From an uncultured Planctomycetota bacterium (lineage in GTDB: Bacteria > Planctomycetota > Planctomycetia > Isosphaerales > Isosphaeraceae), in the NCBI GenBank assembly GCA_963845755.1, contig CAWJTV010000019.1, positions 160,001-224,000 on the forward strand: a stretch of DNA of 64,000 bases. Reading direction: 5' to 3'. Made by a program: the position numbers and the translations under genes. Below the pieces are notes generated by a model, which saw only the letters and a program-made list of their open reading frames with translations, had not been told where the DNA came from and did not search any database. This document shows positions 33,374 to 59,657 of the stretch, piece after piece (positions within the stretch are counted from its first letter, which is position 1; every line of letters begins with the position of its first letter).

Positions 33374-34674
33374 TCACGGCACGAAGGCGTCTTGCGAGAG
33401 CGGCATCTGCTTGCAGTACAGCGGCAGCCGGCTGCCGGCGGGCGTGATCAGCTTCGAGTAGACGGTGCCGTCGATCGTGTTGGGGGTGAACCGCACGGCG
33501 CCGTCGCAGAACATCATGTTGCTGCCGCCAGGATGGCCGCTGTTGGTGAACGGGAACGAGCCCTCGATCGTCAGGCCGGCTTGCTGGGCGAAGTTGATGT
33601 TCTCGAAGGTGCCGACCTTGTTCGTGAAGGACCAGCCCACTCCGTCGAGGTCGCCGGAGACCGTACCGGCGCCGAGCTGACGCTCGCCGGGGCCAGTGTG
33701 CCCGACGTACAGTTGTAGGTGGCCGTTGCGCAGATCGCAGACGAGCCGATGAACATGCTCAGGGTCGGCTGCGGTGCGGACCAGTTCCCCTCCAGAGTGC
33801 CGGTGAATGCACTCGGATTGGCGACGCCGGTCAGCGTGTTCTCGCTCATCAGGAGCGTGCTGCTCGAACCGTCGGAGAGGCTCGTCAGGGTCGACCGCAC
33901 GTTCCAGGGGATCTTGACCTGCACGCCTTGCGGGAACGTCGAATTCAGGAACATCACGCCGAGCTTCTGGGTCACACCCATGGTGCTGAGGTAATTCGCG
34001 GGCGCGCTACCCGGCGCCCAGGTCATGATCTGGGGGGTCTGCCCGCCGTCGATCTGCGAGCCGATCAAGCTGTAGGGGATGGCATGCCACAGTGTGAACC
34101 CGCCGTTGACCGCATAGCTCATGTTCCCCTGGTTGGGCTGGGCCGTGACGTCATCCGGGCACTTCAAGACGCCGATGGCCGTGTTGCCGATCGTGTAATT
34201 GCTCGCCTGGCCGGCGATGTAGTTCGTCGGGTCGTAATAGCTCACCGCTCCGTTCCCGGTCGACGAGGTGGTCGGCGGGAACATCGTCCACTGGTTGAAC
34301 ATGTCCTGGGCTTCCATGTAGGGAAGGATCGGGACGACCCAGCTATACATGGGAACCGCGGTCTGTCTTGGGGTGCCGCCGGGCATGAAGCCGTTGATGA
34401 CCGACTGGCTCGGATCGATCGTGCCGGAGGTCAACGAGGTCAGGGTCGTGGCGTCCTCGCAGAACTCACCGGCCGGGGGGAAGGCATTCTGGCTGTTGAC
34501 GTACTGGAGGATGGCCAGGCCAACGTTGCGCATGTTACTGGCGCACTGGGTGCGCCGGCCCGCCTCGCGGGCGGACTGGACGGCGGGCAACAAGAGGCCG
34601 ACGAGGATGCCGATGATGCTGATCACCACCAGCAGCTCGATCAGCGTGAAACCGCGGCGACGGCGAGTCTTCAT
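33374..34674 (-). CDS. DUF1559 prepilin-type protein with H-X9-DG motif (frameshift near 33660)
   Basis: [81 protein letters not shown]. Confidence 0.93.
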
Positions 34675-34813
34675 GAGTGGTCCTTTCCGAGAATGAGAGT
34701 GGGCTGAACTTAATTCTAACTCCGGACTGGGGGCTTCGACAAGGTTCTTGGTCAGTGAGTAGTCGTCAGTAGTCAGTTGTCATTTGTCAGGAACCGCGCC
34801 TCATCCGGTCTTG

Positions 34814-35070
34814 AGAGTCTGTTCCATAAGTCCTTTCCTGAGCCCCCGGATGGGGGCGGAAGCACGTAGCCAGGGGCGTGAGCCCCTGGACGAGGGGAGT
34901 TCCTCCGATCCGGGAAGCCCCGTAGGGGCGACAGAAACCCTGTGGTTCTGAGGACGTCTGTCGCCCCTCCGGGGCTCGAAGGACGGTCGAGGGGGTCGCG
35001 GTCGATCGTCCAGGGGCTTGCGCCCCTGGCGACGTCCGGTCGCCCCTCTGGGGCTTTGGGAACGGACTCT
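34814..35070. mobile_element. MITE-like element, copy 2
   Basis: Same TIRs and interior as 32893-33150, same orientation. Confidence 0.8.
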
Positions 35071-35111
35071 GAACACTGAAAACTGAACACTGAAAACCAG
35101 GAGCGAAGCGA

Positions 35112-38100
35112 CTACTGAATGATCTTGCGATACAGGACCGCCGCGCGGAACCCGCCGACGTCGTTGTAGTTGAAGCCGGTGAGCTTGAGCCGGTCCACGA
35201 TGAAGAAGCCGCGATAGCGGACCTGGGTGCCGCTCAACTTGCCGACCTCGGGGCCCATGATGTCGTACGCGAGCTGGGGCAACCCCTGGCCGAGCATGCC
35301 GATGTCCCCCTGCTTCTTGATCTCGAAGAACCCGATCGTGATCCAGACCGCGTACTGGTGGGTCCGGACCGTGGTCAGGTTCATCGCCGCCTGCATCATC
35401 TCCGACCGCCAGTACGGATGCTGCCGGTCATCGGGATTCACGCCAGCAGCACCACCGGTGCCGAGGTAGGGTTTGTTCGACGCTGGCGTGCCTGTGTTCG
35501 AGTAGCCGTTGTAGAACGTCAGAGTTGCCCGGTACGAAGGGCGCGGCAATGACTGTAGGGGGGATAAGGCGAGCGAGACCGGTGGTAGCGTCGCCCGTCG
35601 GCGTCAGCATCGGAGGCAGGCCGGCGGCGTTGGGGTAGTAAACCCCGCCGCCAGAATTAGTCATGCCGCCACCCGAAGTCGGTCGGGAACCATGACCACG
35701 GGAGGCTCGTGAACCCGTTGCTGAGCGTGTACATCGGCACCGCTCGGGAGGTTAGTCGGTGATTGTACGGGTTGTACCCCTGGTTGGCGACGATGTTATT
35801 GATCCAGGGATCGCCGGAGTCGGTGGCGTTGCTCAGGGCCGGCGGGATGTTGCCGTTGGCGATGAGGCCGGTGGGGTCGGGGATGCCGACGTACCCCATC
35901 GGGTTAATTGACGTAGGGGTAGCCCTCGAAGTGGCGTCCGGCTGGACCTGCCCCGCGCCAAAGGCGTCCGGCGGCTGGAACAACCGGGCCGGCGGGATGG
36001 CCGGGGGCATCGCCACGTGCCGTCCAGGCCGATGGTGGTTGTCCCGGTCGGCCATGCGATGTTCACCGGCAGTGGGAGACCCGCGGGCACGGTGTTGGTG
36101 GAATCGGTGGTCAATCCCGGCGGTCCAGACCGGATAGGGGCGGGCGTGAAAGACCACACAGGACGGAGGGGTCGACGGTCGTGTAAAGGTTGGGGTCGCT
36201 CGACGCATACCCCTGCGAGAGGAACGGGTTCCTCACGCCCGGATCTCCCGAGTAGACGACCGGCATGGACCGGCGATTGCGGGAAGATCGGGCCTTCGCC
36301 GTCGTATCCGGCGGAGCCTGGCGTGATGTAAGGTGCGTAGTAGTTCGGCTGCGGGCCGAGCATCGCATTGAGGTAGTTATTATTGAGGAAGTACCAGCTC
36401 GAGGGTGCGGTTGGCCGGGGTATAGATCATCGCCTGGGCGTTGGTCACGGTCGCGAGCAGCTGGGGTACGGCGGCTATTGGGGTTCGGTGATCATCGCCG
36501 GGTTGCTGTAAATCGACGGCGGCTGTGCGGCGGGCCGCATGATCGTGTAGTTGATGTCCGGGAACGAGAGCGAGCGGAACGGGAACTCGGCCGGGATCGG
36601 CCCCGTGTAGCCGATGGTCGACGACAGGTTCGGCGTCGCCACGGCACTGTTCTGTCCCGTCGCGCCGACCCCGTACCCGAACAGGTAGCCGGACCCGCCA
36701 TGACGCTGCCAGAGGAACTGCGCGAACGCCGCCTTGATCCGGTTGCCGGGGCTGGGCAGTAAGCACCGGCGTTGCCGTTAATCGCGATGATTCGACTTGA
36801 ACGCCGATGGGATCCTGGGCCAGATACCCCTGCTGGACGGAAGTTCTGGTCGGTGATCGGATACACGTAGTTCGGCGCGCCGGTCGGCTGGATCGCGCTG
36901 ACGACCAGCGGGACCGGCGGCCCGCCGAGCGGGATCGGCGGGAGTGGCACCGTGCCGCCATTGGTCCAGGTGGACAGGGGCATCGTGTAGGGCAACCACG
37001 TCGTGGCGTTGCTGTTGGGCCCGGCCAGCAATGGCAGCTCGATCGAGTTTAACAGGGTCTGGCTATAATCCGATGATCGTCTGACGCCCGAACACGGCGA
37101 AGAACGCTTCCTCGTCGATGATGAGGTTGAGGTTCATCAGGCCCGGCTTGGTATCCTGCCGCGCCCAGTCGAAGTTCATCCCACCGGCGACCGTGCCGAT
37201 CGAGCCGTTCATCTGGCTGGGCACCTCGAAGAACTCGAGCATCTTGAACCAGCCGTCGCTGGCCGGGCCGCCCACGACGGGGGCGGCGATGTTCACGCTG
37301 TGCCCGAGGCCGACGCGCTGGGACGGGTCCGTGGCGCCGGGACCGCGAGCCAGCGCCGCCAACGTCCCGGTCGTCGAATCTTCGGCGGCACCAGCGGCGG
37401 GATAGAGGAACGTCGACGCCCCCGTGTAGAAGAACTTGTCCACCAGGTAGGGGTAGCTATGGGGCTGGATGGGCGCCGTGACAGGGCCGGCTGGGTCGGT
37501 GGAAGGGGTCACTGGTCGGGACCGACGCCGGAACCGACGCCGGGGGGGTGCCCGTCGGGCTGCCCCCCAGCGAGCTGGCGGCGGTGAGCTTCGAGACCGA
37601 CAGGAACGGCACGGTCGCCGTGGCGAAGGGCACGACCGGGGGTGCTGTAGGCGCGGTGCGCGGTGGTCGTCAGTCGTGGGCCCGTTGGTGTGAGGTCGGC
37701 GTCACGTCCGGCGTGACCAGGCTGAAGATATCGGCCGCGTTCATCTGCGACGGCGCGAACTCGACGAACTGCTTGGTGAACAGCCCCGGCGGGCAGCCGG
37801 GAACCAGCGTCACCTCGGCCACGCTGGTGAAGTCCCGATCGTTGAACACGAAGTAATCCCAGTTCTCGGCCGCGTCGTTGTTGAATCCCAGAGTGTGGTA
37901 ATAGTAGTTGGTCGACGCGTTCCCTGACGGCTCCGAAATTGGCGTAGCCCGTAGGCGGTCGCTTGAGCTGTAATGCTGTGGGGACGCCGATCTGTTCGCT
38001 GTAGCCGTATCGCGGGTCTGGGGGCTGAGTGGTCGTGATGGCTCCCTGAGCGTTGGCCGTCGGGGACGCTGTGGCGTTCGGCATCGGCACGGCGTGTCCG

Positions 38101-41100
38101 CCGCGATACGGCTGGAGCCGCTGGGCCGAGTAGATCGTGTTGGGCTTGGAGCCGGCGCCACATACAGGACGCCGCCGGTCAACGTCCAGGCCGTGTCCTG
38201 CGTTGGCCCGTCCCATCGATGTAAGGAAACCGCATGGAGTTGACCACGCACATCGGGTTGGTCGCGGACACCGGCGCGAACGGATTGGCGGGGCGCCGCA
38301 GGCAGACCCACAAGAACTCGGCGGACCCGATCGCTGGGGCCCCGGTGCTACCGATGAGACCGGGAGATTCCATTGAAGATTGCTGATTCCGCTCAACGTC
38401 GTGTCGGTGGATCGGCGCCGGGAGAATCCCGAAGTGATAGGAGGTTGCGGTCGCTGCCGAAGGGGGGAGGGGAGCCGGTGGCTCTCATCGGGTCGTAGGT
38501 GGATGACAGCAGTTGCGTGACGGGGAGGGTATGGAGCGGCGAGTGGGGGTCCAGGACTCGTTGGCGGCGATGTACGGACTGCCGATGACGTAGAAGTAGG
38601 TCGTCGGTGGGGTGGGCGGGGTCGCCGCGCTCGGAGGGTTCGGGCTCGGCGTCGTGAATGGGTAGCTGGTCACGCTGCGTGTCGCTGGGACTGAGAGGGA
38701 GCAGGGTGACGTCGCCCTCGTTCGGCGCCGTTCGGTGTTCGGCCCTCCGAACGAGTCCCGGTTCAGGGGGAGCAGGCCGTAATAGGTGGCCTGCGGAACC
38801 GAGGGGTGGCACCTCGCCACGGTAAGGATCCGGACGGCCCGCGGGGGTATCGGCCAGGAAGACCAGGTCCCAGGTGCCGCCGGAGTAGGGATCGCTCGGG
38901 GTATAAGTCGAAGCCGCCCAGGTCGAGGACGCTGGCCTGGTAGGGCGGGGTCGTGGGGCCTGGAATGTTGCCGCCCGTGGCGGGGCCCGTGACGGGAGGA
39001 CTCTCTGGGAGAGGCCCGTAGCCGTAGTAATTGTGGGGGTCGGTCGGAGTGCCGTAGTCATACGTCGGGTTGTAGGCCGCGGTCAGCGTGTTGACCAGCT
39101 CGATGAAGAAGCGGTTGGTGTACTTGGCCGTGCTGGTGTGCCGATGCCGGTCCGGCTCTGGAAGCCGTAGGCCAGCACTTCGTTGATCGCGACCGGGTTG
39201 TACTCCATGCCGTACTGGTCGAGGAGGCCGCCAGGGGTTCCGGCAGGGGACAAGGGACGCCAGGTTGAGCGTCGGGTAAGCCAGGGCGTTGGTACTGGGC
39301 GTCATCCAGACGTCCGGGTTGACCCAGTGGGTCATGGTGGCATCCGGGTCGCGGAAGTCGATGATGTTGATGACGAACTGGCTGAGCTGCGCCCGTTCCT
39401 CGGCCGTGTCGATCGAGTCCGGCGGCAGGATCCATTTCAGGATCTGATAGGTGTCGCTGATCCACTTCTGCCGGATCGGCTCGTTGCAGTCGTTGGAGAC
39501 CGGCAGCGGGTAGTTCAGGTTGATCTTCCGATCGCGGTGGGCCAGCGACGGGGTATAGGTCCCAGCAACCTGCGTGCTGGCATTCACGCCCACGGCGAAC
39601 CGGCTGTTGTACTGGAAGGTATTGCCGGGGTTATCGTTGGACCAGGCGAAGCCGTTCGACTCCCAGCTATCGGTGCTGAAGAGCCGGCGCCGCCGCAGAC
39701 CGTCGATCGTGTTGGTGAAGCTGATCGGCGCGAGCTGGGACAACCGGCTGGTCAACGTCGCCCCATCCACGTCCTGCTGCCGGTACAGCCACTCCAGGTC
39801 GCTGATGCCGAACGGCGAGTCGAGTATCGGGTTCGGCGAGTAGAGGTTCATCTCGTCGGCCTCGTTCATGGCGTCCGAACTGCGTCTTGCGGCTGACGTG
39901 CGAATCGTAGGTCGGGAAGGAAGTAGGGCGCGGTGGGGGGCGTGTAGGCAGGAGGGCCGGGCGGCGGACTCGCGCCGACCATTTCCCCGACGGTCAGCGT
40001 GTTTTGATCGATGGGCATGGCGGCGACGCCGCTGGGTAGATGGTGGTCGTGTAGCTGAACGCCGTGCCGGCGAACTGGAACTGGTTGGGGAATTTGTATC
40101 GACTCGTAGCCGTGGAACGGGTTATTCGTCACGTCGGGCTCGTAGATGACGGTGGCCGTGGGCGCGGGTGGATACGAGGTAAAATCGGCGGTCCACGGTA
40201 TCGGAACGCCGGGGTCCATCGGCGGGCTCGCCTGGTTGTTCTGCCACCAGTCTCCGAAGCCGGCCGGGGTGCCCGTCCCGGGGATGGTCATCGTCATCGG
40301 GTTGTAGGGCGCGATGGCACCATAGGGGAAACTCGTGGTGTCCGACGACGTGATGTTGATCGGGCCCGGTACGCCCGGGGGGCGGTAGTAGCTGTTGAAC
40401 GCAACGCGGCCGAAGACGTCGGAGCCCCGGCTCGTGCCCACGGCTCCCGGTACCGTTGATATCGGCCGGCGTCACGTACCGCCGCATCCGCTCGACCGGC
40501 AGCATCAGCGCGCCGGCAGGGTCGTAGTAGTCGAGGTCGAAGATCTCGCCGAAGCGAGTCGCAGGGCCGCCGACTGGGGGGAAAGATGTCGAACGCGTTG
40601 TCGTTATCGTCGGCCCCGTCGCGGGGGAACGGCGTGGTGCCGTTGTAGGTCAGGTTGGCGATCAGGTCGGCGATGTCGAACGAATACCCGGCCCGGACCG
40701 GATTGATATAGTTGGTCTGCAACAGGTTGGCAACCGGCGGGGTCCCTGTGGGACTGGGATTGTTGAACGGCTGGCCGGGGACGGATGCGGCCTCGCCCCA
40801 CCGCCCGCCGACCGGCGCGGTGCGTGCGCTGGACCAGCATGGCCCCGCTGGGGTCCGTGAAGCCCCCGGGGTTGGCGATATCGGCGAGATCCGCGATCCC
40901 ATTGGGCAGGTAATAGGGATTGCCACTGGCGAGGCCCGACCATGCCCCGTAGACGATGTTGTCGTCGCCGTTGATCGTGCCCGTGGAGTCGGTGGTGAAG
41001 GGGTTCGACGTGCTGGGGTTGAGCTGCGGCCGCGTGCCGGCCAGCAGGTTGCGGAGCTGAATCAGTCGGACGTCGATCGATTTATAGAAGCCAGACACCT

Positions 41101-42864
41101 GGTTGATCGCGTTATCCGCCTGGGTGTTGAAAGTGCCGTGGTCGGAGAACCCCAGTAGGTGGTCGCCGGTACCGAGGGGATAGGTGGCTGGGGGTGGCGA
41201 TGCCATTCCCAAATTGGTTGAACGGATCGACGTCGCTTCCGTAACTGATAAGCATTCTGAAGCGCGTACTGCGGGTCGATCTCGCTGACCGAGTTGCCCA
41301 GGTGCTGGGCCTGAGCCGCGAGTGCGCTGACGGTGGCTGGGTCCCGGCCCGCGAGGTTGCCGGCCGTGTTGAGCGGGATGCGGCCGTTGAGGCCGATGAC
41401 CATGAAGGCGAACAGCGGCTTGTTGAGCTGCCCGCGCGTGTCGCGGCGGGCGGGATAGCCCAGGTCGAGCCAGACCGAGTCGGTGATCCCGTCGCCGTCG
41501 TTGTCCACATCGTAGGCGATCTTCCCCGTGTTCGCGTCGGGGATCAGGTCCGGGAACGTGTTCGCGTCGTGGCCGTCGGCCGCGACCGGCCGGAGGATGC
41601 GGCCCAGCGAGTCATAATTCGGGATCCCGAACAGGCCATTCGGGAACCGGAAGGCCTGACTCCAATCGAGCGGATTATTCGTCTTCTGGCCCGTGGGACC
41701 GTTGTAGCGGAGGATCCCCGGCCGGTGGAACGACGGGATCATCACCTGGCCGTCGGCGCTCTGGATCGCCAGGAACCAGTTCTCCAGGTCGCAGGCGTCG
41801 TAATCCTCGTCCATGCCCACGGTGTTCGGCCCGGGGACGTTGAGCGCGAGGTTATAGCGGAAGTTGCCGTAGTAAGAGTAGGGCAGCCCGGTCACAGTCG
41901 AGAAGCTGTTTCCCTGCCCCGGACCGTTGAACGCGTGCAGCCAGCGGCCGTCGAGCGTGAACGGGTAATTGGCGGGGCCGGCGCCGGAGTAGTACGGGAT
42001 GCTCGGATACGCCCCATTCCCGCTCAACTGCAACATGGCCTGTTGCGTCGGGACGTACGCCAGCGGCAGGGTATTCGTGTTCGACCCGGGCTGGTTCCAG
42101 CCCGGGAACAGCGGCGGTGGCGTGGTCGCGCCACTCGGGTTCCAGCTCGTGAATCCGAGCGTCGGATTATTCAGGACCGCTTGGTTCTTATAGGTATTGC
42201 CCATCGTCGTCAACGAGGGTGAGTGGCGAGTCGATCGGGCTGAGCCGGAAGGCGTGGAAGCCCTGGCCCCCGTACGTCGTCCCGGCCCCGGCCGGCGCGA
42301 AATCGTTGACGATGACCTCCAACGACTGGCTCACCGCCTGGGGATACGTGGTTGTGCTCGTCGTCGGCGTGGGCCCGATGTACGACATCCGGACGATCCA
42401 GCGGGTGAAGTTGTAGCCATACAGCAGCGGGGAGTTCGCGGGGATCGGAATATTCGTCAGCACGTCGTAATACGTGACTCCGTTGATAACGACCGGAGCG
42501 ATCAACAACGCGCCCGTCAGCGGGTTGGCCTGGAGCTGCAAGGTGCCATTGGTCGCCGGGTTGTACGTCAGGTAGCCGTTCCGGAACGCGTCGTTGCCGT
42601 ACATGTCGCGGGCGAGGCTGTGGCCGTGGAGCACCGAACGGGGGTCGTTCGTGTCGGTGATCAACTGCGAGAGGGCGAAGTCCATCAGCTCGTCGTCCTG
42701 CGGCTGGATGACCGACTGCGCGAAGTTGGCGCGTTGATCTTCGACTGGCCGCTGAAGGTGGCGAAGGTGACCCCGATCAGGGCCAGCAGGCCGAGCATCG
42801 CCAGGACCAGGACCAGGACGATCCCGCGCCGCGCCCGCTTGTGATGTCGTAGATTGGCCAGCAT
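35112..42864 (-). CDS. Giant (~2,500 aa) PilX/GspK-like minor pilin or adhesin, fragmented by many indels
   Basis: Start MLANLRHHKRARR-GIVLVLVLAMLGLLALIGVTFATFSG (class III signal lacking Glu5) after an SD GAGGGAG. Continuous coding-like P/T/N/G-rich frames include MDEDYDACD, DVDNDGDGITDSVWLDLG, GRIPLNTAG, RKINLN, QFVINIIDFRDPD and NLTTVRTHQYAVWITIGFFE...YRKIIQ*. It could be more than one gene. Confidence 0.7.
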
Positions 42865-43019: not shown

Positions 43020-43095
43020 CGATTCGAGATTCCGGATTCGAGATTCGAGATTCCGGATTCGAGATTCGAGATTCCGGATTCGAGATTCCGGATTC
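43020..43095. repeat. Heptamer array (GATTCGA / GATTCCG), about 11 units, starting at the four-helix-bundle stop codon
   Basis: Directly visible; reverse complement of the 43643-43845 array. Confidence 0.95.
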
Positions 43096-43616
43096 AGCCC
43101 GGCTTCCCATTTCCATTCCGAGACGAAATAGCCGTCCTGGCGGCCTCGTCCTGGATGGCCTGCAATTTCACGAGGCACTCATCCCGACGTTTCACGGCTT
43201 GAGTTCGTTCTCGCGCCTGGGAATTCTGCGACCGCACACCTTGAAAACCCGAATCCTTGATGGACTCGATCCAACCCCCGAGTTGTCTCGAGATGCTCTC
43301 CCCGCGGCGGAGGAGATCCTCAAGATCGCGGTGCAAATCCTCCGGTCGTGGAAGTCGTTCGAGAAGATGGAGCATCGACCGGACTTCCGCGCACGATCCT
43401 CGGGCGATGTAGAGGAAGTTCAGGAGCTCATTATTGGTTCCGCGATCGAATCCCTCGGCGATATTGTTCGAGATGGAGATGGTCGCCCGCTCGATCTGAA
43501 TCTTGAGATCGCCCAGAGCGTTCAACACGCCCGTCGCCGACAATCGGAAGACGGCAAGAGCCATTTCGATCACGTCGTTCCAGACGGGCAACTCTTTCGA
43601 ATCGCTTGTATTTCAT
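43094..43616 (-). CDS. Four helix bundle protein (23S rRNA IVS protein / Avd-like fold family); frameshift near 43592
   Basis: MKYKRFE-LPVW...LKIQIERATISISNNIAEGFDRGTNNELLNFLYIARGSCAEVRSML. Confidence 0.9.
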
Positions 43617-43642
43617 GGGAACTTCCTCAGGCGACTTCTTTG

Positions 43643-43845
43643 GGCATCTCGAATCCGGCATCTCGAATCCGGAATCTCAAATCTCGAATCTCAAATCTCG
43701 AATCCGGCATCTCGAATCCGGCATCTCGAATCTCGAATCCGGCATCTCGAATCTCGAATCCGGCATCTCGAATCCGGCATCTCGAATCTCGAATCCGGCA
43801 TCTCGAATCCGGAATCTCGAATCTCGAATCCGGAATCTCGAATTC
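43643..43845. repeat. Heptamer array (GAATCTC / GAATCCG / GCATCTC), about 29 units
   Basis: Directly visible between the Uma2 stop (43855) and the SD of the four-helix-bundle gene. Confidence 0.95.
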
Positions 43846-43854
43846 AGCCTTCCC

Positions 43855-50263: not shown

Positions 50264-51979
50264 GGGTTCCCCCCTTGTACGCCCTGTTGCGCCTGGGTAT
50301 AGGGCCAGTTGGGACTGTAGTTTGCCAGCGGGGTGGAGGACCCCTCCGGGTTATTGGTGAACCCGCCCGCGTTGAAATTGAACAGGAACGGCATGTTCGA
50401 GTGAGAGAGGATCTGTCCCGTCCGCGTGAACAGCGTAACCAGCGCGTATTCTCCCTTGAGCTCCTGACCGTCGAAACGCGCGGGCGCAGGCCCTGGGGCA
50501 CCGGCAAGTAGGGATTGGAGTTCTGAGCCTGGCTCGGCGTGGCCAGGTCGCCCCGCTCAGCCAGCCAGAGGTGTACGAACGCCGCCCCCAGATTGAACGA
50601 CGACGGGCTCGAATAGACCGTCGTCGGCAGCACGGTCCCGTCCGGGTTGAGCACGATGTCCACGTAGCCGGTATGCTTGAAGTGAAGATCGACCATCCCC
50701 GCCGCCAGGCGGGATCGTTCGTTTCGAAGGGGGCACGGTCTGGTTGTTCGCGTTCAGGAACGACCCCCAGCCGGTCAGGTCGACCACGACCCCCGTCGGC
50801 AGGGCGATCTCTCGGGAGTTGGGCGACGGTGCCGGCCGACGCTTGATGGTATAAACCTGGTTCGTAAGCGGAGTCGTGAACAGGCTGTTCTGGCCGCGCC
50901 CAGCAATTGCTCGGGCTCCCACTCTGTGACGAACTGGCCGTTAATGACCGCGTTCTCGTCGACGAAGCCATTGCCGTTGTTGTCCACGCCATCCCAGCCC
51001 TCGTCGATCCAGCCGTTGTCGTTGTCATCCTGGCTGTTGACGAGGAAGAGGAAATCGGGCTGATAGCGCGTCTGGCAAGCGCCGGCGGGGCCGTTGTACT
51101 GCGCGATCAGCGGAGAGAGGATCCCGGGCGGCCCGACATTCACGAACATCTCGGGGTTGCTGTAGAACGTCCCGTTGATGGTCGTCCCGGCCGGCGATAT
51201 GGCCATGGGACCCACGACGGTATACCACGGACCGGAGTTGTTGATCTGGATCTTGTCGCCCACCCGGATGTTCCAGAACCAGTTCGTTGGTGGGTTAGGC
51301 ATCGGTGGGCAGGTCCCCGGCGCGAAGGTGGTCTCCTGGACCATGAGGACGTTGGCGAGCGGATAGGTTCCTCCTCCATCGCCGGGATAGGCCAGCGGGG
51401 TCGGCGAACCGGCCTGCGCCTGGAAAATGGCCCCGGTGAGCAGCCCTTCACGTCCAGGAATCCCTCCGTATACTCGGGCGCCGGGTCGATGGGGATGATC
51501 CGGTTGGCGGCGAGGATCTGCGAGGCGTCCACCTGGCCGTAGTACGGGCTCGTGTTGTTGGTGACATACGTCAAATAGGTCGGGTCGGGCAGCAAGCGGA
51601 TCCCGCTGGGCAAGTTGGTACTGATGGCCTTGTCGTGCGCACCGACCAGCATACCCTGAACGAGCCGCTCGGCCTCCGAGACCTCGCGATGGGCCAGCGC
51701 CGGCAGGACCGTCGGCAGCGCCACGGCGCTGACGATCAGGATGATCAGGATCACGACCAGGAGCTCGATGAGGGTGAAACCCCTTCTTGGATCGCTTATC
51801 GATCGAGTCGAGCACGCCTCGGGGCCGATGCGAACATACCCCCCCTGGCCCCCGCTTCGTAAGGGGGGGAAACTGAGGAGGACTGGCCCATATTCCTTTC
51901 CCCCCCTTACGAAGCGGGGGCCAGGGGGGGTTCCCCACGCGTGCCAAAGCCAACTGTGAACCGCCCTGGCGAGAATCAT
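50260..51979 (-). CDS. FimT/GspH-like minor pilin (several frameshifts)
   Basis: [25 protein letters not shown]...EAERLVQGMLVGAHDKAI; DDNDNGWIDEGWDGVDNNGNGFVDE; ATG overlaps the upstream TGA. Confidence 0.8.
51838..51931. repeat. ~35-bp perfect inverted repeat (REP-like doublet) inside the predicted prepilin leader
   Basis: ACCCCCCCTGGCCCCCGCTTCGTAAGGGGGGGAAA and its reverse complement at about 51897-51931. Confidence 0.9.
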
Positions 51980-53547
51980 CCCGAACCTCCGATCGCGACG
52001 GTCGTCTGCAAGTTCTGGTTGCTGATATCGTCCTGGGCCGCCTGGAGCAGGTCGTAGCTGGTCGGATTGGTCGGGTCGGTCCCCGGGTTGTAGCCGACCG
52101 TCGTGCTCTGGATCGAGGCGTGCTGGGTGAAATCGGCCACGTCGTTGATGGAAAAGGGCATGGCGTTGTTCTCGTTGGCGATCAGCGCGAAGGCGGCACT
52201 CGACCCGAAAGCCTTCATCGCGGCGTCGGAGTAGAGGAAGACCCCGAACTGTTGATTCAGCCCCGAGGAGACGATCAGGAATTTGGAGTAGTACGCCCGG
52301 CGCCCGCCATAGGCCGTCCCGCGGTCCCAGAACGTGGTCCCACCCGGGGTCGGGTAAGGCTCGGTCAGGCGGTGGAAGAAATACTCGAAGGCCTGGACGC
52401 CGCCGCTGCCACCGGCCTGGCTCGCCGTCCCGGGGAATGCGAAGACGGCCGTGTTGAAGGCGTTGTTGTAGGAGCTCGACCACCAGGCCGGCAGCATCAG
52501 TTGCTGGTTCTGATCGAGCGGGTTTTGCTCGCGCTCCTGGAACGCGGTCAGATAAGGGGGGGCCATGGTCCAGGCGTTCTCGCTGTTGGCGATGATCGTC
52601 TGCCCGCGCTGGATGTCGGAGTGATACAGGAGCGGCCACCGGAAGAACTGGAGCGGCTGGCCCCAGGCGTCGACGAACTCGGGCAGGCCGTCGTCGTCGG
52701 TATCCTGGACCTCCCGGTCGGTGAAGTCGTCGGGATTGTAGATCGCACCCAGCGGGCCCCGGCCTTCGACCAGGATGGCGTAGAGCATCTCCGAACGCGC
52801 CGTGTTGTGCGTGTGGTTCGTCAGGTTCGCCACGACCTGGGCCTGATTCGTGGTGGTGACGCCCTCGGCCCACTCGTCGATCAGGCCGTTGCCATTGTTG
52901 TCGATCATGTCGTAGCCCTGGGGCAGGTAGCCCAGGTTCTTGTAAAGCCCCGCCGCCGCCGGATAAGAGGCACCGAAGATACCGGTCCCCTGGGGAATGT
53001 AGGGATTGCCCGACTGGGGCCCGAGGATCGCGTTCCCCGTCGGGAGGACGTAGCCGGCGACAGCGTCAAGCTGGCTGTATCCCGTGGAGCCGCCCAGCGG
53101 CTGGCCCGGGAACGGGTTGGCCGCGAAGTTGATCGGGTAGGGGCCCGTCGCGTTCTGCACGAAGAAGACGTCGGGCAACTCACTCTTGATATAGTCATAC
53201 CAGGCGATGACTTCAGCACGCGTGGGGCCCAGGATCGCCCCATTATTCGGGAGGGTGGACTGCCCGTAGACGCTGCTGTTATAGATATTCGACATCGCGA
53301 GATGTGCCAGGTCGTAATCGGGCCGGGTCAGGAGCAGGGCCTCGATCCGGTCGTTGAGCCCGGTCTCCAGCTTGGTGATGAGACTCTGGGTCGCCCGCTC
53401 CTCCGCCCGGCGGCGGGCCTCCATCGACGCGTTGATGATGAAGCCGACGATGATCGAAATGATCACCATCACGACCATCAATTCGACCAGGGTGAACCCA
53501 TCGGGGATCCGGGATTTGGGATTTCGGATTCGGGCTTGGTTTCGCAT
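51976..53547 (-). CDS. Prepilin-type N-methylation domain protein (523 aa)
   Basis: DGFTLVELMVVMVIISIIVGFII; DTDDDGLPEFVDAWGQPLQFFRWP; LIVSSG. Confidence 0.9.
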   Translation of the reverse strand: MRNQARIRNPKSRIPDGFTLVELMVVMVIISIIVGFIINASMEARRRAEERATQSLITKLETGLNDRIEALLLTRPDYDLAHLAMSNIYNSSVYGQSTLPNNGAILGPTRAEVIAWYDYIKSELPDVFFVQNATGPYPINFAANPFPGQPLGGSTGYSQLDAVAGYVLPTGNAILGPQSGNPYIPQGTGIFGASYPAAAGLYKNLGYLPQGYDMIDNNGNGLIDEWAEGVTTTNQAQVVANLTNHTHNTARSEMLYAILVEGRGPLGAIYNPDDFTDREVQDTDDDGLPEFVDAWGQPLQFFRWPLLYHSDIQRGQTIIANSENAWTMAPPYLTAFQEREQNPLDQNQQLMLPAWWSSSYNNAFNTAVFAFPGTASQAGGSGGVQAFEYFFHRLTEPYPTPGGTTFWDRGTAYGGRRAYYSKFLIVSSGLNQQFGVFLYSDAAMKAFGSSAAFALIANENNAMPFSINDVADFTQHASIQSTTVGYNPGTDPTNPTSYDLLQAAQDDISNQNLQTTVAIGGSG

Positions 53548-53807
53548 GGCGGCCTACCGTCGAGAGTGGTGATCAGTCGGGTCTCGATCGTGGGATTTCC
53601 GGTTGTTCGATCGACCTCACGGACAATCCCAAATCGAAAACCCAAAATCCCAAATAATTAAGTGCATTCTTCGATCGGGGCCGGCGCCCGCCGCCCTCAC
53701 CGGGCGGCCACGGGCGGGCCTGCGTAGGTCAGGCCTTCCATCGGGCCTGACAGTTATGTCTCGCCAGGCCGGAAAGCCTGACCTGCCGACTTGCCGGAGT
53801 CTTACGA

Positions 53808-55049
53808 CTACCGGAGTGCCGATGCCTTGAAATTGCTCAGATTATCGTACTCCCGCTGCCGGATGCTGGCGTCGCCCAGCGGGTTTCCGGTCGAGGCGTT
53901 GATCGTATTATTAGGGTCCACCGGCAGCGGGACGGTGGTCGACTGCGTCGATTGCTGATACTGGCCGCCGACCCCGTACAGACCGTCGATCCCCGCGGAG
54001 ATAATCTGGAAGGTCTGCGGCTTCTGATAGGTGACCGTCCCGGTGGTAGCCGGGGCCGTCAGCGTGCTCGTGTACGGATTGGGCGACGGCGAGATGGAGA
54101 CATACGGGGTCGTGGCGCTGCCGTACGTCAAGAAACCCACGTAGTACTGGAGCGCGGTGATTCCCGTGCCGGTCACCGCATCGGTCTCGACGAAGTTCAC
54201 GTCGTTGGGGTCGTAGTTCCCCCTGCCGTAGGCGCTGAAGTAGGCGTAGAAGTTGACGGGACCCGAGCCGGTACCGGCCCCGGTCGGCGGACCGTTGTTG
54301 AGCGTGTCGTAATAGGCCGGGATGCCGGGGTTGATCCCGGCGGGGCCATTCAGGGTCGTGTTCGTGGGATCCAGGAACAGCCGGCCGGCATTGAACTCGA
54401 AGGTCGATTGCTGACGGTTGGCGTTGTACATCGGGTTGTTGACGATGCTATTGCTGAACGGGTTGACCGGGTCCCTGCCGAAGCCCGTCATGCCGTAACC
54501 GCCGGAGCTCGAATCGAAGAGCGGGATGCCGCCCAGGAAGAAGACCAGGCACTCGTGTCCGTGGAGGATATAGGCACCATCCAGGGTGCCGTTGCCGTTG
54601 AAGTCGTACCAGTAAGTGTTACTGAGGTTCGGCGGCGAGGACCCGTTGGTGCTCAACTGGACCTTGGGCCAGAATCTCCGGAGGGCGGTCAGCGTCCGCG
54701 AGGCGAGCTGACCGACCGTGATGTCGTGTGTGCCCGGCGAGGTCGGGTCGATGGAGCTGAGCGGTAACGTATTCCCGACGTAGGGCGTGTAGTTCCCGTT
54801 CTCGACCAGCAGCACGCGGCTCGGGGGATAGTCCCCGTACGTGCTCTTGAAACTCTCCAGCGCCTGGGCGAACTGGGTGATCTCGGCCAGGACCTGGGCC
54901 TGCCTGGCGCTCTTGACAGCGCCGAAGATCGCCGGCAGCAAGAGCGCGATCAGGATCCCCAGCACGACGATGACGATCAGGAGCTCGACGAGGGTGAAGC
55001 CTCGTGGTCCTCGGTCCCGGGTCCCGGGTTGCTTGGCGTCGAACCTCAT
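53808..55049 (-). CDS. GspG/PilA-like pilin or pseudopilin (413 aa)
   Basis: RGFTLVELLIVIVVLGILIALLLPAI...ALESFKSTYGDYPP; FQIISAGIDGLYG...DNLSNF. Confidence 0.9.
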   Translation of the reverse strand: MRFDAKQPGTRDRGPRGFTLVELLIVIVVLGILIALLLPAIFGAVKSARQAQVLAEITQFAQALESFKSTYGDYPPSRVLLVENGNYTPYVGNTLPLSSIDPTSPGTHDITVGQLASRTLTALRRFWPKVQLSTNGSSPPNLSNTYWYDFNGNGTLDGAYILHGHECLVFFLGGIPLFDSSSGGYGMTGFGRDPVNPFSNSIVNNPMYNANRQQSTFEFNAGRLFLDPTNTTLNGPAGINPGIPAYYDTLNNGPPTGAGTGSGPVNFYAYFSAYGRGNYDPNDVNFVETDAVTGTGITALQYYVGFLTYGSATTPYVSISPSPNPYTSTLTAPATTGTVTYQKPQTFQIISAGIDGLYGVGGQYQQSTQSTTVPLPVDPNNTINASTGNPLGDASIRQREYDNLSNFKASALR

Positions 55050-55149: not shown

Positions 55150-55200
55150 TACGAATATTGAAATATCTTATTTATATTATTAGCGCCGATGCATTTAGTG
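55150..55200 (-). promoter_or_regulatory. AT-rich island, probable promoter for the pilin genes
   Basis: GAATATTGAAATATCTTATTTATATTATTAG in a GC-rich background, about 110 nt upstream of the first pilin ATG. Confidence 0.5.
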
Positions 55201-55274
55201 TACGGATGCTTCACCTGTTATCCCACCTGTTCTCTGGCGGACAACTCCGGAGCGCGAGGCGCGCCGGAGGCGCC

Positions 55275-56520
55275 CTAGCCGGAGAGCTTCGAGATCAGCG
55301 TGATGAGCGGGAGGAACAGCGCGATGACGATGAAGCCGATGATGCCGCCGAGGATGACGATCATGATGGGCTCGAGCAGGCTGACGAGGCTCTCGACGGC
55401 CGTCTCCACCTCTTCGTCGTAATTGTCGGCGATCTTGTTGAGCATGGTGTCGAGCTCGCCGGTCTCCTCGCCGACGTCGATCATGTTGACGACGATGTCG
55501 TCGAACGATCCGGGCTTCCTTGAGCGGCTGTGCGATCGTCTCGCCCTCGCGGATGCTCTCGTAGATCCGCGTGAAGGCCCGCTCGAAGACGGCGTTGCCC
55601 GCGGTGTCGCGGACGATGTTCAGCGACTCCAGGATCGGCACGCCCGACTGGACCAGCGTGCCCAGGGTCCGCATGGTCCGGGCCACCGTCAACTTCTCGA
55701 CGATCATGCCCATGACCGGGATCATCAGCTTGATCCGGTCGCAGATGTAGGCCCCCGTCTTGTTGCGGTAGAGCAGCTTGAGGAAGATCCAGACGAACAA
55801 GGGCGCCAGGAAGATGATGTAGAAATACTTGATGAGGAAGTGGCTGGCCTTGATCAGGAAGATGGTCATGCCGGGCAGCGGCACGCCGAAGTCGGCGAAG
55901 ATCGCCTCGAACTTGGGGATGATGAAGTAGAGGATGAAGCCCACGATCACGCAGGCGACGAAGATGACCACGACCGGGTAGACCATCGCCGCCTTGACCC
56001 GGCGCTTCAGCGACTGGGCCTTCTCCTTGAAGTCCGCCAGGCGCTGGAGGATCGCCTCGAGTGCACCACCGGCCTCGCCCGCCTTGATCATGTTGCAGTA
56101 CAGCCGGTCGAACGCCTTGGGATGCTTGGCGCAGGCCTCGGAGAGCGTCTGGCCGCTCTCGATGTCCTCGACGACGTCCTGGAGCGAGTTCTTCAGCACG
56201 CCCGGCTTGCACTGCCCCTCGAGGATCTTCAGGCTGCGCAGGATCGGCAACCCGGCGTCCTGCAAGGTCGAGAGCTGGCGCGTGAAGACGCACAACTGCT
56301 TGGTCGAGATCCGGCCGATCGTGAACGACTTCTTCTTCCGCCGGCCCCCCTTCTTGGCCTTGGCGCGGGTGCTGGTCTTCTTCGCCTTCTCGGAGATCTT
56401 CGTGACGAAGAACCCCTTCTGGCGGATCAGTTGCTGCGCCTCTTCCTGGGTCGAGGCGTCGATCGAGTCCTTGACCTCGCGCCCGGTGTGGTCCATCGCC
56501 TCGTACTGGTAGGTCGGCAT
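55275..56520 (-). CDS. pilC: PilC/GspF platform protein (frameshift near 55500)
   Basis: [56 protein letters not shown]. Confidence 0.93.
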
Positions 56521-56649
56521 GGGGGTCGCTCCTCGCTCCAGTGGTCAGGGGTCGGTGGTCGGACGAAAGACGCGTCTCTCGCACCGCCGATCACGACTGG
56601 CTGACCTTCTTGCTGTTTTGTGTCTCTTCTGACCACTGACCACGGCTGG

Positions 56650-58368
56650 TTACATATCGTCCAACATCGTCTCCCGCAGCACTTCCTCGATGGAGGACTT
56701 CCCGTTGTGGATGTACTCCATGCCGACTTCGCGGAGGGTCTTCATGCCGAACTTGCGGCAGGCGTTGCGGAAATCGTCGAGGGAGGCCTCGGAGATGATC
56801 ATCTCGCGCAGGGTGTCGTTCATCACGAGCAGCTCGTAGATGCCCTGCCGGCCCTTGTATCCGGTGTTATTGCACTTGTCGCAGCCCTTGCCGTAGAAGA
56901 ACTTCTTGGTGGTGGCCTGCTCGGGGGTCATGCCGAGCTCCATGCAGACCTCGGGGGTCGGCGTGAATTCGGTCTTGCAGAACTGGCAGAGGCGGCGGAC
57001 CAGCCGCTGGGCGAGCACGGCCTCGACCGTGGCGGTGATCAGGAACGTGGGCACGCCCATGTCGCGGAGCCGGGTGACCGCCGAGGGCGCGTCGTTGGTG
57101 TGCAGCGTCGTGAAGACGATGTGGCCCGTCAGCGAGGCCTGGATCGAGATCTCCGCGGTCTCCAGGTCGCGGGTCTCGCCCACCAGGATCTTGTCCGGGT
57201 CCTGCCGCAGGATCGACCGCAGGCAGCTGGCGAAGGTCACGCCGATGTCGGGGTTCACCGGGATCTGGATCAGGCCCTCGATGTCGTATTCGACCGGCTC
57301 CTCGGTCGTGATGATCTTGTCCTCGATCCGATTGAGGTGGTTCAGCGTGGCATACAGCGTGGTCGTCTTCCCCGAGGAGGTCGGGCCGGTCACCAGGATG
57401 ATGCCGTTGGGCTTCTCGATGATGTCGTGCCACGTCTTCAGCGTGTCGTCGGGCATGCCCAGCAGCTTGAGGTCGAGCTGGACGACCGTGCGGTCGAGGA
57501 TCCGCAGCACGACGCTCTCGCCAAACATCGTCGGCAGGGTCGAGACCCGGATGTCCACCTCGTTGCCGCCCAGGGCGAGCTGGATCCGGCCGTCCTGCGG
57601 CAGCCGGCGCTCGGCGATGTCGAGGTTCGACATGACCTTGATCCGGCTGGAGATCGCCGGGGCCAGGTGCCGTGGCGGCGGGACCAGCTCGTAGAGGATC
57701 CCGTCCACCCGATACCGCATCTTGTACTCTTCCTCGAACGGCTCGAAGTGGATGTCCGACGCCTTGTCCTTGATCGCCAGCAAGAGCACCATGTTGAGCA
57801 GCTTGCGGACCGGCGCGGCCTCCGCCATCTCCTCGATGGCCTCCAGGTCGATCGTGTTCTCGTTACGGCCCGCCAGCTTGGCCAGCCCCTTGTCCGACTC
57901 GATCTGCTTGACCACATCCTGGATGCTCTCGTGGTGGCCGGCATAAAGCCGCTCGATGGCCGCCATCACGTCGGACTCCGACGCGATCGCCCCCTTCACC
58001 TCCGTGCTCAGGAACATCCTCAGGCTGTCGAGCGTCGAGGGGTTCTGCGGCTCCGCCATCGCGACCGTGATGCTCTTGTCCTTCTTGTTCTGCGAGATCG
58101 GCACGATCTTGTAGGCCGTGGCCATGCTCTCGTTGACCAGGTCCGTCATCTCGGCGGGGATCGTCACGTCGGCCAGCTTCACGACCTTCATCCCGAGCTG
58201 CTCGCCCAGCGCCTTGAGCACCTGGTCTTCCTTGACCAGCCCCATCCGCACGGCCGTCTTGCCCAGCAGCTCGGTGCCGGTGCGCTTCTGCTCCTCCAGG
58301 ATCTTCCAGAGAGTCTCCTCGTCCAGATAACCCATGTCAACCATGATCGTGCCGAGTCGTCGTGCCAT
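56650..58368 (-). CDS. pilB: PilB/GspE assembly ATPase with MshEN-like N-terminus
   Basis: ASDIHFEP, RLPQDGRI, GPTSSGKTT, LRQDPD..LVGE, TGH...TLHTN, CxxC...CxxC, GYKGR. Confidence 0.93.
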   Translation of the reverse strand: MARRLGTIMVDMGYLDEETLWKILEEQKRTGTELLGKTAVRMGLVKEDQVLKALGEQLGMKVVKLADVTIPAEMTDLVNESMATAYKIVPISQNKKDKSITVAMAEPQNPSTLDSLRMFLSTEVKGAIASESDVMAAIERLYAGHHESIQDVVKQIESDKGLAKLAGRNENTIDLEAIEEMAEAAPVRKLLNMVLLLAIKDKASDIHFEPFEEEYKMRYRVDGILYELVPPPRHLAPAISSRIKVMSNLDIAERRLPQDGRIQLALGGNEVDIRVSTLPTMFGESVVLRILDRTVVQLDLKLLGMPDDTLKTWHDIIEKPNGIILVTGPTSSGKTTTLYATLNHLNRIEDKIITTEEPVEYDIEGLIQIPVNPDIGVTFASCLRSILRQDPDKILVGETRDLETAEISIQASLTGHIVFTTLHTNDAPSAVTRLRDMGVPTFLITATVEAVLAQRLVRRLCQFCKTEFTPTPEVCMELGMTPEQATTKKFFYGKGCDKCNNTGYKGRQGIYELLVMNDTLREMIISEASLDDFRNACRKFGMKTLREVGMEYIHNGKSSIEEVLRETMLDDM

Positions 58369-58541
58369 TGGTCATTGGTCCTTGGTCGTGTGATCGTGAT
58401 CGGGGTTCCTGGTCAGATCTCTGGTTTCCGGAGTTGTCGGGATCGGGCGCGATCCGCGGAGTTCCCGTCTCGATAATTGCGGCGGGCGCCGGGCGAATGC
58501 CCGCGGAGCGACCGCCAGGTTAATGACCAATGACCAATGAC

Positions 58542-59657
58542 TCATCCTTCCTCTTCCTCCTCCTCGCCCTCTTCATCCTCGTCGAAGATTCCCTTCTTGG
58601 CGTTCTCGATGCGCTCGCGCAGGTCGTTCGGTTTCCGGGACTTGAACATCACCTCGCTCTCCTCGACCAGGCCCTGCTTCCAGAGGTTGAAGAGGCTGTC
58701 GTCGAGCAGGATCATGCCATGCTTGCGCCCGGTCTGGATGGAGGAATCGATCCGGTACGTCTTGTTCTCGCGGATTAAGTTGGAGATCGCCGGGGTGACG
58801 ACGAGCATCTCGTAGGCGGCCACCAGGCCCTTGGGCTTGCGGGGCAAGAGCGCTGCGCAGGATGCCGAGGATCGCCACCGACAACTGGGTGCGGATCTGG
58901 TCCTGCTGATCCTTGGGGAACACGTCGATGATCCGGTTGACGGTGCCCTCGGCCGAGTTGGTGTGCAGGGTGGCGAAGACGATGTGGCCGGTCTCGGCCG
59001 CGGTGATCGCCGCGGAGATCGTGGCCAGGTCGCGCATTTCGCCGACCAGGATGATGTCGGGGTCCATCCGCAGGGCCCGGCGAATCGCCTCGGGGAAATC
59101 GGGCACATCGACGCCGATCTCACGCTGATTGATCAGCGACTTGTTGTGCTTGTGGAAATACTCGATCGGGTCCTCGATCGTGATGATGTGGCGATCCATC
59201 GTGCCGTTGATCCAGTTGATCATCGACGCCAGGCTCGTGGTCTTCCCCGAGCCGGTTGGACCCGTCACCAGGATCAGTCCCCGCGGCCGGGTGATCAACC
59301 CCTCGATCACCGGCGGCAAGCCGAGCTGTTCAAACGTCAAGAACTCGTTGGGGATCCGCCGCAACACCAACCCGACATTGCCACGCTGCTTGTAAATGGC
59401 AACCCGGAACCGGGCCATGTCGCCGAACGCAAAGCCGAAGTCGGTCCCCCCAACTTCTTGCAGCTCCTGCTGACAACGCTCCGGCGCGATGCTCTTCATC
59501 AAGGAGACCGTGTCCGAGGGCTCGAGCACCTTGGTCGCCAGGGGCGCATATGCCCATGCAGCCGAAGCATCGGCTGGCTGCCGACAGTCAGATGGAGGTC
59601 GCTCGCTTTCTGGGTGCAGACGGTCTGAAGCAGTTTATCGATGAGCAGCGTACCCAT
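58542..59657 (-). CDS. pilT: PilT retraction ATPase (frameshifts near 59560 and 58855)
   Basis: KASDLHLTVG, GPTGSGKTTSLAS, TIEDPIE, QREIG, ALRMDPDIILVGEMRD, AAETGH, AISNLIRE. Confidence 0.93.

Follow-up and report, generated by a model that had tools for sequence, protein, structure and literature searches.

The stretch of DNA analysed here (the window, 64,000 nt, G000:C19:160001-224000) belongs to a planctomycete genome of 14.27 Mb in 49 contigs, with ~64.5% G+C and a completeness of 87.9%. The genes of the region under study lie on its minus strand (the sense strand in what follows) and include two ATPases of the pilT and pilB type, a pilC gene and several pilin-like genes (Table 1). The gaps between a number of these genes hold short tandem arrays of 7-nt units which face each other as inverted pairs. 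An initial annotation, noting a different unit at each junction, read these pairs as a candidate hairpin system of the pilus operon messenger. We found that they are local members of a genome-wide population of hairpin-forming inverted heptamer arrays, and not a device of the pilus operon.

Tandem arrays were called with Tandem Repeats Finder (TRF) in the window and in the whole genome, and the window arrays were also read directly. Each array that the initial annotation listed is present where it was placed, the one at 47930-47950 being visible by eye only. The window yields 13 period-7 TRF rows, compared to 2.6 on average (8 at most) over 30 dinucleotide shuffles, and five inverted period-7 pairs, compared to a single one over all 30 shuffles. 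In the predicted folds the arms pair with each other at five of five junctions. The five pairs are real; their complementarity lies far above chance, and the spacer is folded together with any cargo into a hairpin, as had been suggested. Whole-region minimum free energy z-scores on the sense strand were -4.3, -1.3, -1.7, -7.8 and -9.6 for the five junctions, two of which are not significant. Complementarity between the two arms is partial at the weaker pair.

Table 1. Genes, heptamer arrays and other elements of the region (units in sense orientation; TRF consensus in brackets, with the TRF limits where they differ)
Feature	Position	Strand	Details
T2SSE ATPase, pilT-like	58573-59529	-	Pfam
T2SSE ATPase, pilB-like	56650-58368	-	Pfam
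T2SSF (pilC)	55195-56520	-	Pfam
N_methyl pilin-like genes	53808-55049, 51976-53547, 48529-50214, 46743-47954	-	Pfam
Two Uma2 genes	within 43852-45472	-	Pfam
PF05635 cargo gene	43094-43591	-	165 aa, 23S rRNA intervening-sequence protein, Pfam E 5.8e-20; co-oriented with flanking genes
DUF1559 gene	33571-34674	-	Pfam
pilT/pilB 5' arm	58522-58541	-	GTCATTG x3 (AATGACC x2.9); directly after TGA 58542-58544
pilT/pilB 3' arm	58366-58387	-	ACCAAGG ACCAATG ACCAATG (CATTGGT x3.1); pilB ATG 58368-58366 within last unit
pilB/pilC 5' arm	56629-56645	-	CCGTGGTCAGTGGTCAG (CTGACCA x2.1, 56629-56643); 4 nt past pilB TAA
pilB/pilC 3' arm	56538-56563	-	CCGACCACCGACCCCTGACCACTG (GTGGTCG x3.1, 56541-56562); ends 18 nt upstream of pilC ATG
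pilin/pilin 5' arm	53624-53655	-	ATTTGGG-type units (AATCCAA, 53625-53655); ~150 nt past upstream pilin stop
pilin/pilin 3' arm	53503-53534	-	CCGAATC/CCAAATC (GGGATTT, 53511-53534); within leader-peptide coding of N_methyl gene 51976-53547
Uma2-side cassette 5' arm	43646-43845	-	~28 GATTCGA/GATTCCG/GATGCCG units (43646-43843)
Uma2-side cassette 3' arm	43021-43095	-	~10 NNGAATC units (GATTCGA x~10)
Weaker pair 5' arm	35069-35097	-	GTTTTCA GTGTTCA x2 (CTGAAAA x4.1); downstream of gene 35112-35549
Weaker pair 3' arm	34751-34790	-	TGACAAA TGACAAC TGACTAC TGACGAC ... (GTCAGTA x5.7); upstream of DUF1559 gene 33571-34674
MITE-like repeat between weaker-pair arms	34791-35068		21 near-full-length genomic copies; absent at same gap of G001
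Unpaired array, 5'-arm type	45552-45571	-	AGGCAGT x2.9 (GCCTACT x2.9); few nt past stop of gene 45575-46891
Unpaired heptamers	55013-55029	-	CCGGGAC CCGGGAC CGAGGAC (GGTCCCG x2.4); leader-peptide coding of N_methyl gene 53808-55049
Degenerate heptamers	47930-47950	-	CCAAGGG CCGAGGA CCAAGAA; leader-peptide coding of N_methyl gene 46743-47954; under TRF threshold

The two upstream gaps illustrate the arrangement. In sense direction, the pilT/pilB gap reads TGA, GTCATTG x3, 135 nt, ACCAAGG ACCAATG ACCAATG, GCA, while the pilB/pilC gap reads TAA-ccag-CCGTGGTCAGTGGTCAG ... CCGACCACCGACCCCTGACCACTG-gagcgaggagcgaccccc-ATG, with a conserved GGAGCGACC ribosome-binding region between the 3' arm and the pilC start. 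The initial description needs a correction here: sequence coding for prepilin leaders contains the left pilin/pilin arm as well as the two arrays that begin at 47930 and 55013. The leaders of three N_methyl genes are in part encoded by heptamers (53503-53534, 55013-55029 and 47930-47950; for example MRNQARIRNPKSRIPDG/FTLVEL), and the orthologous leader in the same-genus relative G001 is encoded by another heptamer, GCCCGAC. No Pfam family was found for the genes at 35112-35549, 41062-42213 and 42188-42685, which leaves the earlier 'pilX' labels unverified. We rejected a reading of the hairpins as intrinsic terminators, as direct reading (there was no formal terminator scan) shows the 3' arms running into ribosome-binding sites and starts, not into T-runs.

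Genome-wide, TRF called 8594 merged arrays, among them 1223 of period 7 with 275 strand-collapsed units; 839 of these 1223 are wholly intergenic. When array pairs were counted within 3 kb, the period-7 arrays formed 333 inverted and 141 direct pairs. Inverted pairs are scarce at other periods, with 7 from 840 arrays at period 6, 13 from 620 at period 8 and 22 from 1962 at period 9. Collapsing to nearest partners left 222 inverted period-7 pairs, with a median spacer of 36 nt and a tail to 3 kb, and 221 of them have called genes on both sides. Gene calls were made by a crude home-made codon-bias caller, which misses genes and returned 11537 of them at 74% coding. The flanking genes are co-directional for 140 pairs, convergent for 41 and divergent for 40, in proportions matching those of all intergenic gaps >30 nt (5842, 1556 and 1729). 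Since the orientation of their flanking genes equals the background, the pairs are not a pilus or operon-junction system, and the earlier idea of a system peculiar to the pilus operon does not hold.

The population falls into two classes. Class 1, with 155 of the 221 pairs, is built on GATTCNN units and is dispersed in the manner of MITEs (miniature transposable elements with inverted repeats) or repetitive extragenic palindromic (REP) sequences: 154 copies have the left flank CCTAACGCGGCCTTCGGCCGCAACCC and the right flank CCCAGAGGCGCG in common, on either side of a hairpin of ~83 nt. These elements stand far from gene ends, and just 6.7% have a called gene end 20 nt or less from an arm. Units of this type include CGGAATC (221 arrays), GGGAATC (102 arrays, canonical form AATCGGG), TCGAATC (70) and TGGAATC (49). 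A four-unit pattern, GATTCNNGATTCNNGATTCNNGATTC (26-nt span), has 676 matches here. Four relatives have 606, 131, 68 and 5 matches, and the remaining 26 of the 31 genomes searched have none; the reversed pattern, as a control, gave 0 matches. The 9-mer GGCCGCAAC occurs in 526 genomic copies and must also flank other dispersed repeat families, because only 154 of these copies adjoin GATTC arrays.

Class 2 comprises 66 locus-specific pairs with other units, GAAGGAT, AGTAGTC, AGGCAGT, AGTGGCA, GTCATTG and CCGTTGT among them. In 78% of these, a called gene end is found 20 nt or less from one of the arms. In the 49 co-directional cases the 5' arm follows the stop at a median of 15 nt (at most 20 nt in 27 of 49), and from the end of the 3' arm to the called start the median distance is 43 nt (at most 35 nt in 24 of 49); the 3' arm often ends at the next ribosome-binding site. 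A stop triplet stands at the 5' arm in 34 of 49 class 2 cases, compared to 16 of 91 in class 1. The initial observation that one arm abuts a stop and the other often lies near the next start therefore extends genome-wide for this class. GAAGGAT/GAAGGCT pairs have a conserved loop in common; the loops of locus-specific pairs are mostly unique. Four of the window pairs belong to class 2, and the Uma2-side pair has a class 1 unit type.

The order of the two arms is fixed for each unit, with counts of 59:1, 52:0, 16:1, 14:0, 11:0, 9:0, 8:0, 7:0 and so on. Because an inverted pair reads identically on both strands, this is a true handedness and not an effect of gene direction. It follows that on any mRNA a G/T-rich arm comes after stops and an A/C-rich arm before starts; the median distance of the A/C-rich arms to called starts downstream is 7-43 nt, depending on the unit.

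The pair between the Uma2 and 'pilX' genes exists as the initial annotation described it, but that description left out the PF05635 gene which it brackets. In the fold of this 836-nt cassette the arms pair (z -7.8). Such an open reading frame (ORF) is carried by one of the five window pairs. The genome has five PF05635 genes, three of them directly bracketed by arrays, each with a different unit, and two with arrays within ~170 nt. In a class-wide sample, 34 of 61 genomes have a PF05635 gene. With one locus per genome (30 loci), an automated and strict test, requiring inverted tandem arrays of equal period within 450 nt, found 18 of 30 PF05635 genes bracketed compared to 0 of 54 control windows from the same loci; three to four more look bracketed by eye. 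The bracketing arrays are mostly of period 7, and periods 6, 8 and 14 also occur. A comparison of gene presence with array presence among genomes was discarded as unusable: five of five array-bearing relatives have the gene, but so do some array-free genomes, which were scored for one unit only. We also tried the MITE-like repeat of the weaker pair as a part of the array system and rejected it: among 21 near-full copies, the one in the window is alone in lying between two arrays, and the repeat is unrelated to them.

Comparison with relatives shows that the turnover of the junction fillers is very fast. In the pilus region G001 shows synteny and its genes are 74-90% identical, but every junction differs: its pilT/pilB gap has CAGTCGG/CTGACCG-type units, its pilB/pilC gap a hairpin of 23-nt repeats without heptamers, its pilin/pilin gap a different insert of 473 nt with GCCCGAC heptamers in the leader-coding region, and its pilX/DUF1559 gap related arms around different cargo, the MITE being absent. 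G001 does have the PF05635 cassette at its position, with ~4 units in the upstream arm compared to ~28 here. Beside that cassette, the two Uma2 genes of the window (43852-45472) match about four tandem copies in G001. G015, whose pilB is 89% identical, keeps the pilT/pilB pair with both arms changed (ATTGGTC/GACCAAT here, CGTGGTC/GACCACG there), and G017 and G022 have still other units at pilB/pilC. Among the loci listed from L004 on that contain the pilB/pilC gap, none has heptamer arrays except that of G022 (L024); the hairpin of G001 is not heptameric. In 39 full-length metagenome relatives, this gap carries nested arrays of many units at 84-89% pilB identity and none at 74-83%; the scan returned no relative above 89% pilB identity.

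A second PF05635 cassette (C36:339110-339623) is missing from the orthologous gap of G001, G015 and G014, which hold a different filler each; the outer end of the right array is the exact point at which homology begins again. At L148 (G001:C10:139740-140060), the stop codon (TAG) of the upstream gene of G001 comes from an AGTGGCT array into which the gene runs, so that heptamer arrays can donate stop codons.

These observations, namely the dispersal, the change of unit number between congeners, the fixed arm order, the tendency of unit variants to be mirrored between arms, the cargo and the absence or difference at orthologous gaps, form the basis of our interpretation. We see the arrays as fast-turnover, tolerated ('selfish' or near-neutral) repeats resembling intervening sequences, which act as the terminal inverted repeats of cassettes, and we give this reading an even chance of being right. 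Among the options raised initially, the footprint of a mobile system inserting harmlessly into operons fits best, given the dispersed copies, the cassette missing in three relatives and the PF05635 cargo. Such repeats would accumulate in the sole free space that tight operons offer, from the stop codon to the next ribosome-binding site. Upon transcription, the outermost units would pair and bring the next start into the immediate vicinity of the stop, where a long stem has its foot, whatever the content of the loop. The long stem would in addition be a likely substrate of RNase III, by analogy to 23S rRNA intervening sequences with a PF05635 gene and heptamers; an RNase III gene is present in the genome. 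Both effects would render an insertion harmless to the operon, and insertions may thus survive in tight operons because stop and start are apposed and the stem is cut. We do not think that the host uses the arrays as a dedicated regulatory system. We see no sign of a host function, as the flanking-gene orientation equals background and there is no G·U excess.

Several results weigh against this interpretation. No target-site duplication is evident in the listed flanks, and no transposase or other mobility machinery was identified. A link to REP sequences and their associated transposases (RAYTs) was not apparent either: the genome has eight Y1_Tnp matches, none of them bracketed by heptamer hairpins. 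The lengths of the two arms are uncorrelated (rho ~0.1). The sense strand has no excess of G·U over A·C mismatches, with 32 and 27 in class 2 (p 0.60) and 54 and 69 in class 1. There is accordingly no covariation signal specific to the RNA strand, and the missing wobble signature does not speak for a role of RNA pairing either. The connection to rRNA intervening sequences is by analogy, because the 23S rRNA of this genome lacks such an insert: its single match covers 2801 nt over a 2925-position model, and the cassettes found here lie between protein-coding genes. Distances to starts are approximate because of the crude gene caller. No public sequencing run contained >0.20 of the words sampled from the stretch; matching at >=85% likeness gave only short contigs, which represent coding parts of relatives. 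The tight abutment to stops and an arm order that is universal across units could, finally, equally reflect a selected function.

Selection by the host is the core of the most probable alternative, in which the hairpins punctuate operons: a terminating ribosome would melt the base of the stem and free the adjacent ribosome-binding site and start, coupling the cistrons independently of their distance, and/or an RNase III cut would set cistron stabilities. The short median distance of 5' arms to stops fits such a role, as does the finding that in 17 of 38 co-directional cases neither arm is more than 35 nt away from a called gene end, compared to 1 of 86 in the other class. The pilB ATG within the last unit, paired with the unit beside the pilT stop, is also in its favour, and so are the arm order, always G/T-rich after stops and A/C-rich before starts on either strand, and the pilT/pilB pair of G015, which was kept although both arms changed. 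We nevertheless consider operon punctuation unlikely. Class 2 pairs lie between co-directional genes in 49 cases, convergent genes in 9 and divergent genes in 8, which does not differ from the background of 67.5/16.3/16.2%, and coupling is impossible at 17 of 66 pairs because their flanking genes are convergent or divergent. Most relatives (73-83% pilB identity) are without arrays at these gaps, the G001 pilB/pilC hairpin is not heptameric, the wobble excess expected on the sense strand is lacking, and a Shine-Dalgarno-like motif and start within 40 nt of the 3' arm were found in just 14 of 49 cases.

A related proposal held that distinct units prevent cross-pairing between junctions. This is not borne out, as the cognate duplex is clearly best in only three of five rows and one cross-junction pair passes the complementarity test. 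Nor are neighbours kept distinct: two of five pairs of neighbouring elements have the same unit, compared to a random expectation of 0.22.

The arrays could also be a local mutational by-product without mobility or function, growing by slippage while hairpin-templated repair (quasi-palindrome correction) keeps the arms alike. Unit variants indeed tend to be mirrored between arms (z>0 in 31 of 35 pairs, and above the 95th percentile of unit-order shuffles in 7 of 35), and the ~28 and ~4 units in congeners, the uncorrelated arm lengths and the lack of an identified transposase agree with this model. Heptamers are, moreover, the most abundant class of long simple-sequence repeats in many bacteria (Mrazek 2007, as cited by MacGregor, PMC4679880). 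We regard this explanation as improbable. The non-repeat flanks common to 154 copies and the conserved loop of another family require copying between sites; relatives differ in whether they have whole gene-bearing cassettes, genera with and without the repeats form a patchy distribution, and a strict single arm order over ~30 units is not expected from symmetric slippage.

Quite improbable, in our view, is that the arrays bind a protein as single strands, with the complementary arm serving as a switch that hides them. Four 3' arm units have an ACTGA-like core (ACTGAAA, ACTGAAC, ACTGACC, ACTGACT) and lie at the short distances before starts given above; unpaired arrays occur; and where pairs sit tightly between divergent genes, only the proximal arm would fall into each 5' untranslated region. 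This recalls the 169 TAACTGA sets which MacGregor 2015 (PMC4679880) places mostly a few nucleotides upstream of starts. But a single binding protein hardly fits ~30 different units, the arrays of this genome are for the most part paired, unlike those of that paper with one inverted repeat in 170 sets, and the GATTCNN class is not near starts. The exact TAACTGA is neither among the 50 commonest of the 275 units nor among the 31 pair units, though no direct search for it was made. The last alternative, G-quadruplexes or other non-B DNA acting on transcription or replication as proposed for Xanthomonas GGGAATC, is barely credible: that unit is present in 102 arrays (AATCGGG), (GGGAATC)n oligonucleotides form quadruplexes in vitro (Rehm 2015, PMC4692102) and a long unpaired array lies at a synteny breakpoint to G001, but most units, including CGGAATC, TCGAATC, TGGAATC and all stop-to-start units, cannot form G3 quadruplexes because they lack GGG runs, and the defining feature here is the complementarity between arms.

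REP-type palindromes act as mRNA stabilisers in other bacteria. Our arrays resemble REP, BIME and REPIN sequences and MITE-type palindromes in their dispersed conserved copies (154 in the case of GATTCNN), their potential to form hairpins and their frequent position just past stops. They differ in that their arms consist of variable numbers of heptamers and in that we found neither a target-site duplication nor a cognate transposase, the Y1_Tnp genes included (0/8 flanked).

Closer parallels exist in print, and we take our arrays to be of one kind with the inverted GGGAATC pairs of Xanthomonas and with the heptamers known from cyanobacteria and Beggiatoaceae. In Xanthomonas campestris and X. 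axonopodis, Rehm 2015 (PMC4692102) described 186 and 183 arrays per genome of the GGGAATC type, (GGGANTN)n, with 70 and 75 opposed pairs, and read them as G-quadruplex formers. These too are tandem 7-nt repeats, mostly intergenic and with opposed arrays close by; their function is likewise open, and one unit is identical (GGGAATC, which is GATTCCC on the other strand). In our genome, this published unit is one of those of class 1, but most arrays use related GATTCNN or unrelated units, and GGGAATC itself is not the unit of any of the four strongest window pairs. The system described here also differs in its phylum, in having ~30 units instead of one, in the stop-to-start subclass and the cargo genes, and in that most units are incapable of forming quadruplexes; the 'convergent' arm order of the Xanthomonas pairs may differ from the order found here. 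The 23S rRNA intervening sequence of Coxiella burnetii (PMC4990558) has a PF05635/S23p ORF, a 28-bp terminal stem that RNase III cleaves and, at its 5' end, GACAGAT heptamers in tandem. PF05635 cargo, a long terminal inverted-repeat stem and heptamers are common to both elements, the Coxiella heptamers standing at the element's 5' end and that element being tolerated through RNase III excision. The planctomycete cassettes, by contrast, lie between protein-coding genes, their whole arms are made of heptamers, most pairs are without an ORF, and cleavage is predicted only.

The tandem heptanucleotides of the cyanobacterium Calothrix are named STRR. In Calothrix PCC 7601 there are three of them, as cited in Rehm 2015 (PMC4692102), and TAACTGA direct heptamer repeats were reported just upstream of starts in marine Beggiatoaceae, cyanobacteria and Bacteroidetes (MacGregor 2015, PMC4679880). 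Like our arrays, these repeats are intergenic, patchy across phyla and in one orientation to the downstream start, with an ACTGA-like core before starts. The TAACTGA repeats are direct (1 of 170 sets inverted), whereas in this genome arrays mostly come in pairs, the partner abutting the upstream stop. The initial statement that no mechanistic description was known thus needs to be amended: the repeat class is in print (Rehm 2015, MacGregor 2015 and the Coxiella paper), yet without an established mechanism. In the literature searched, we found nothing that links PF05635 genes outside rRNA to inverted heptamer arrays, and nothing on such arrays in planctomycetes. In that literature, the supplementary tables of the cited papers aside, we did not see a description of the many-unit stop-to-start class, the strict arm order or a measured PF05635 association outside rRNA.

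Further features of the window deserve mention. Inverted arrays are not confined to heptamers: octamer arrays (ACGCGGAG opposite CTCCGCGT) occur twice, 2.2 kb apart (17593-17618/17666-17682 and 19779-19803/19851-19866), and decamer arrays (GGAACCCCCC opposite GGGGGGTTCC) at 48225-48244/48305-48324. The long unpaired GGAATCN array at 29646-29816, with ~24 units, lies exactly at a synteny breakpoint with G001, in which 26827-29610 matches in inverted orientation, ~40 kb away from where 29859-32397 does. Hairpin repeats of small size (GTCAGGC...GCCTGAC) and a palindromic element of the CCCCCCTTGCGAAGGGGGG type recur in the same gaps across genomes (53660-53800; L149 of G015; the G001 junctions). 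The intergenic gaps are sinks for several repeat families. Between T2SSF and the first pilin gene, 55150-55195 is strongly AT-rich (TAATAATATAAATAAGATATTTCAATATT) in a genome of 64% G+C; this stretch may be a pilin promoter, which would break the assumed single transcript. The pilT-like gene (58542-59529) looks frameshifted near ~58850, as residues 1-231 and 226-315 of its 318-aa ORF match relatives in different frames. A second ORF at 58542-59123 carries the pilT-like C-terminus up to the TGA that abuts the array, and contigs of relatives have 1-nt insertions at 58852-58858. Either the frameshift is genuine or the assembly contains an indel.

The Avd protein, known from diversity-generating retroelements, is similar to PF05635 (PMC10053308). 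Going beyond our favoured reading of tolerated repeats, inverted heptamer arrays and an Avd-like PF05635 protein could together constitute one widespread 'intervening-sequence' class, a proposal that we consider decidedly unlikely in its entirety. Gene-bearing cassettes would be its autonomous members and ORF-less pairs non-autonomous derivatives. They would colonise transcribed gaps between stops and ribosome-binding sites or, elsewhere, rRNA helices, and be rendered harmless by the zipping together of stop and start and by RNase III excision. The arm order and the 7-nt period would stem from a copying mechanism of their own, which may be RNA-templated because Avd serves diversity-generating retroelements as an accessory protein.

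Few unexplained repeats of bacterial genomes are as abundant as tandem heptamers, and this genome is unusually informative about them through its strict arm order, a class running from stop to next start, fillers exchanged as a whole between congeners and the measured PF05635 link. The arrays are relevant for annotation, as they supply stop codons, encode prepilin leaders and mark a rearrangement breakpoint. If the link to PF05635 (18 of 30 compared to 0 of 54) is causal, it would give this repeat class a genetic home and connect rRNA intervening sequences, operon-gap hairpins and Avd-like proteins.

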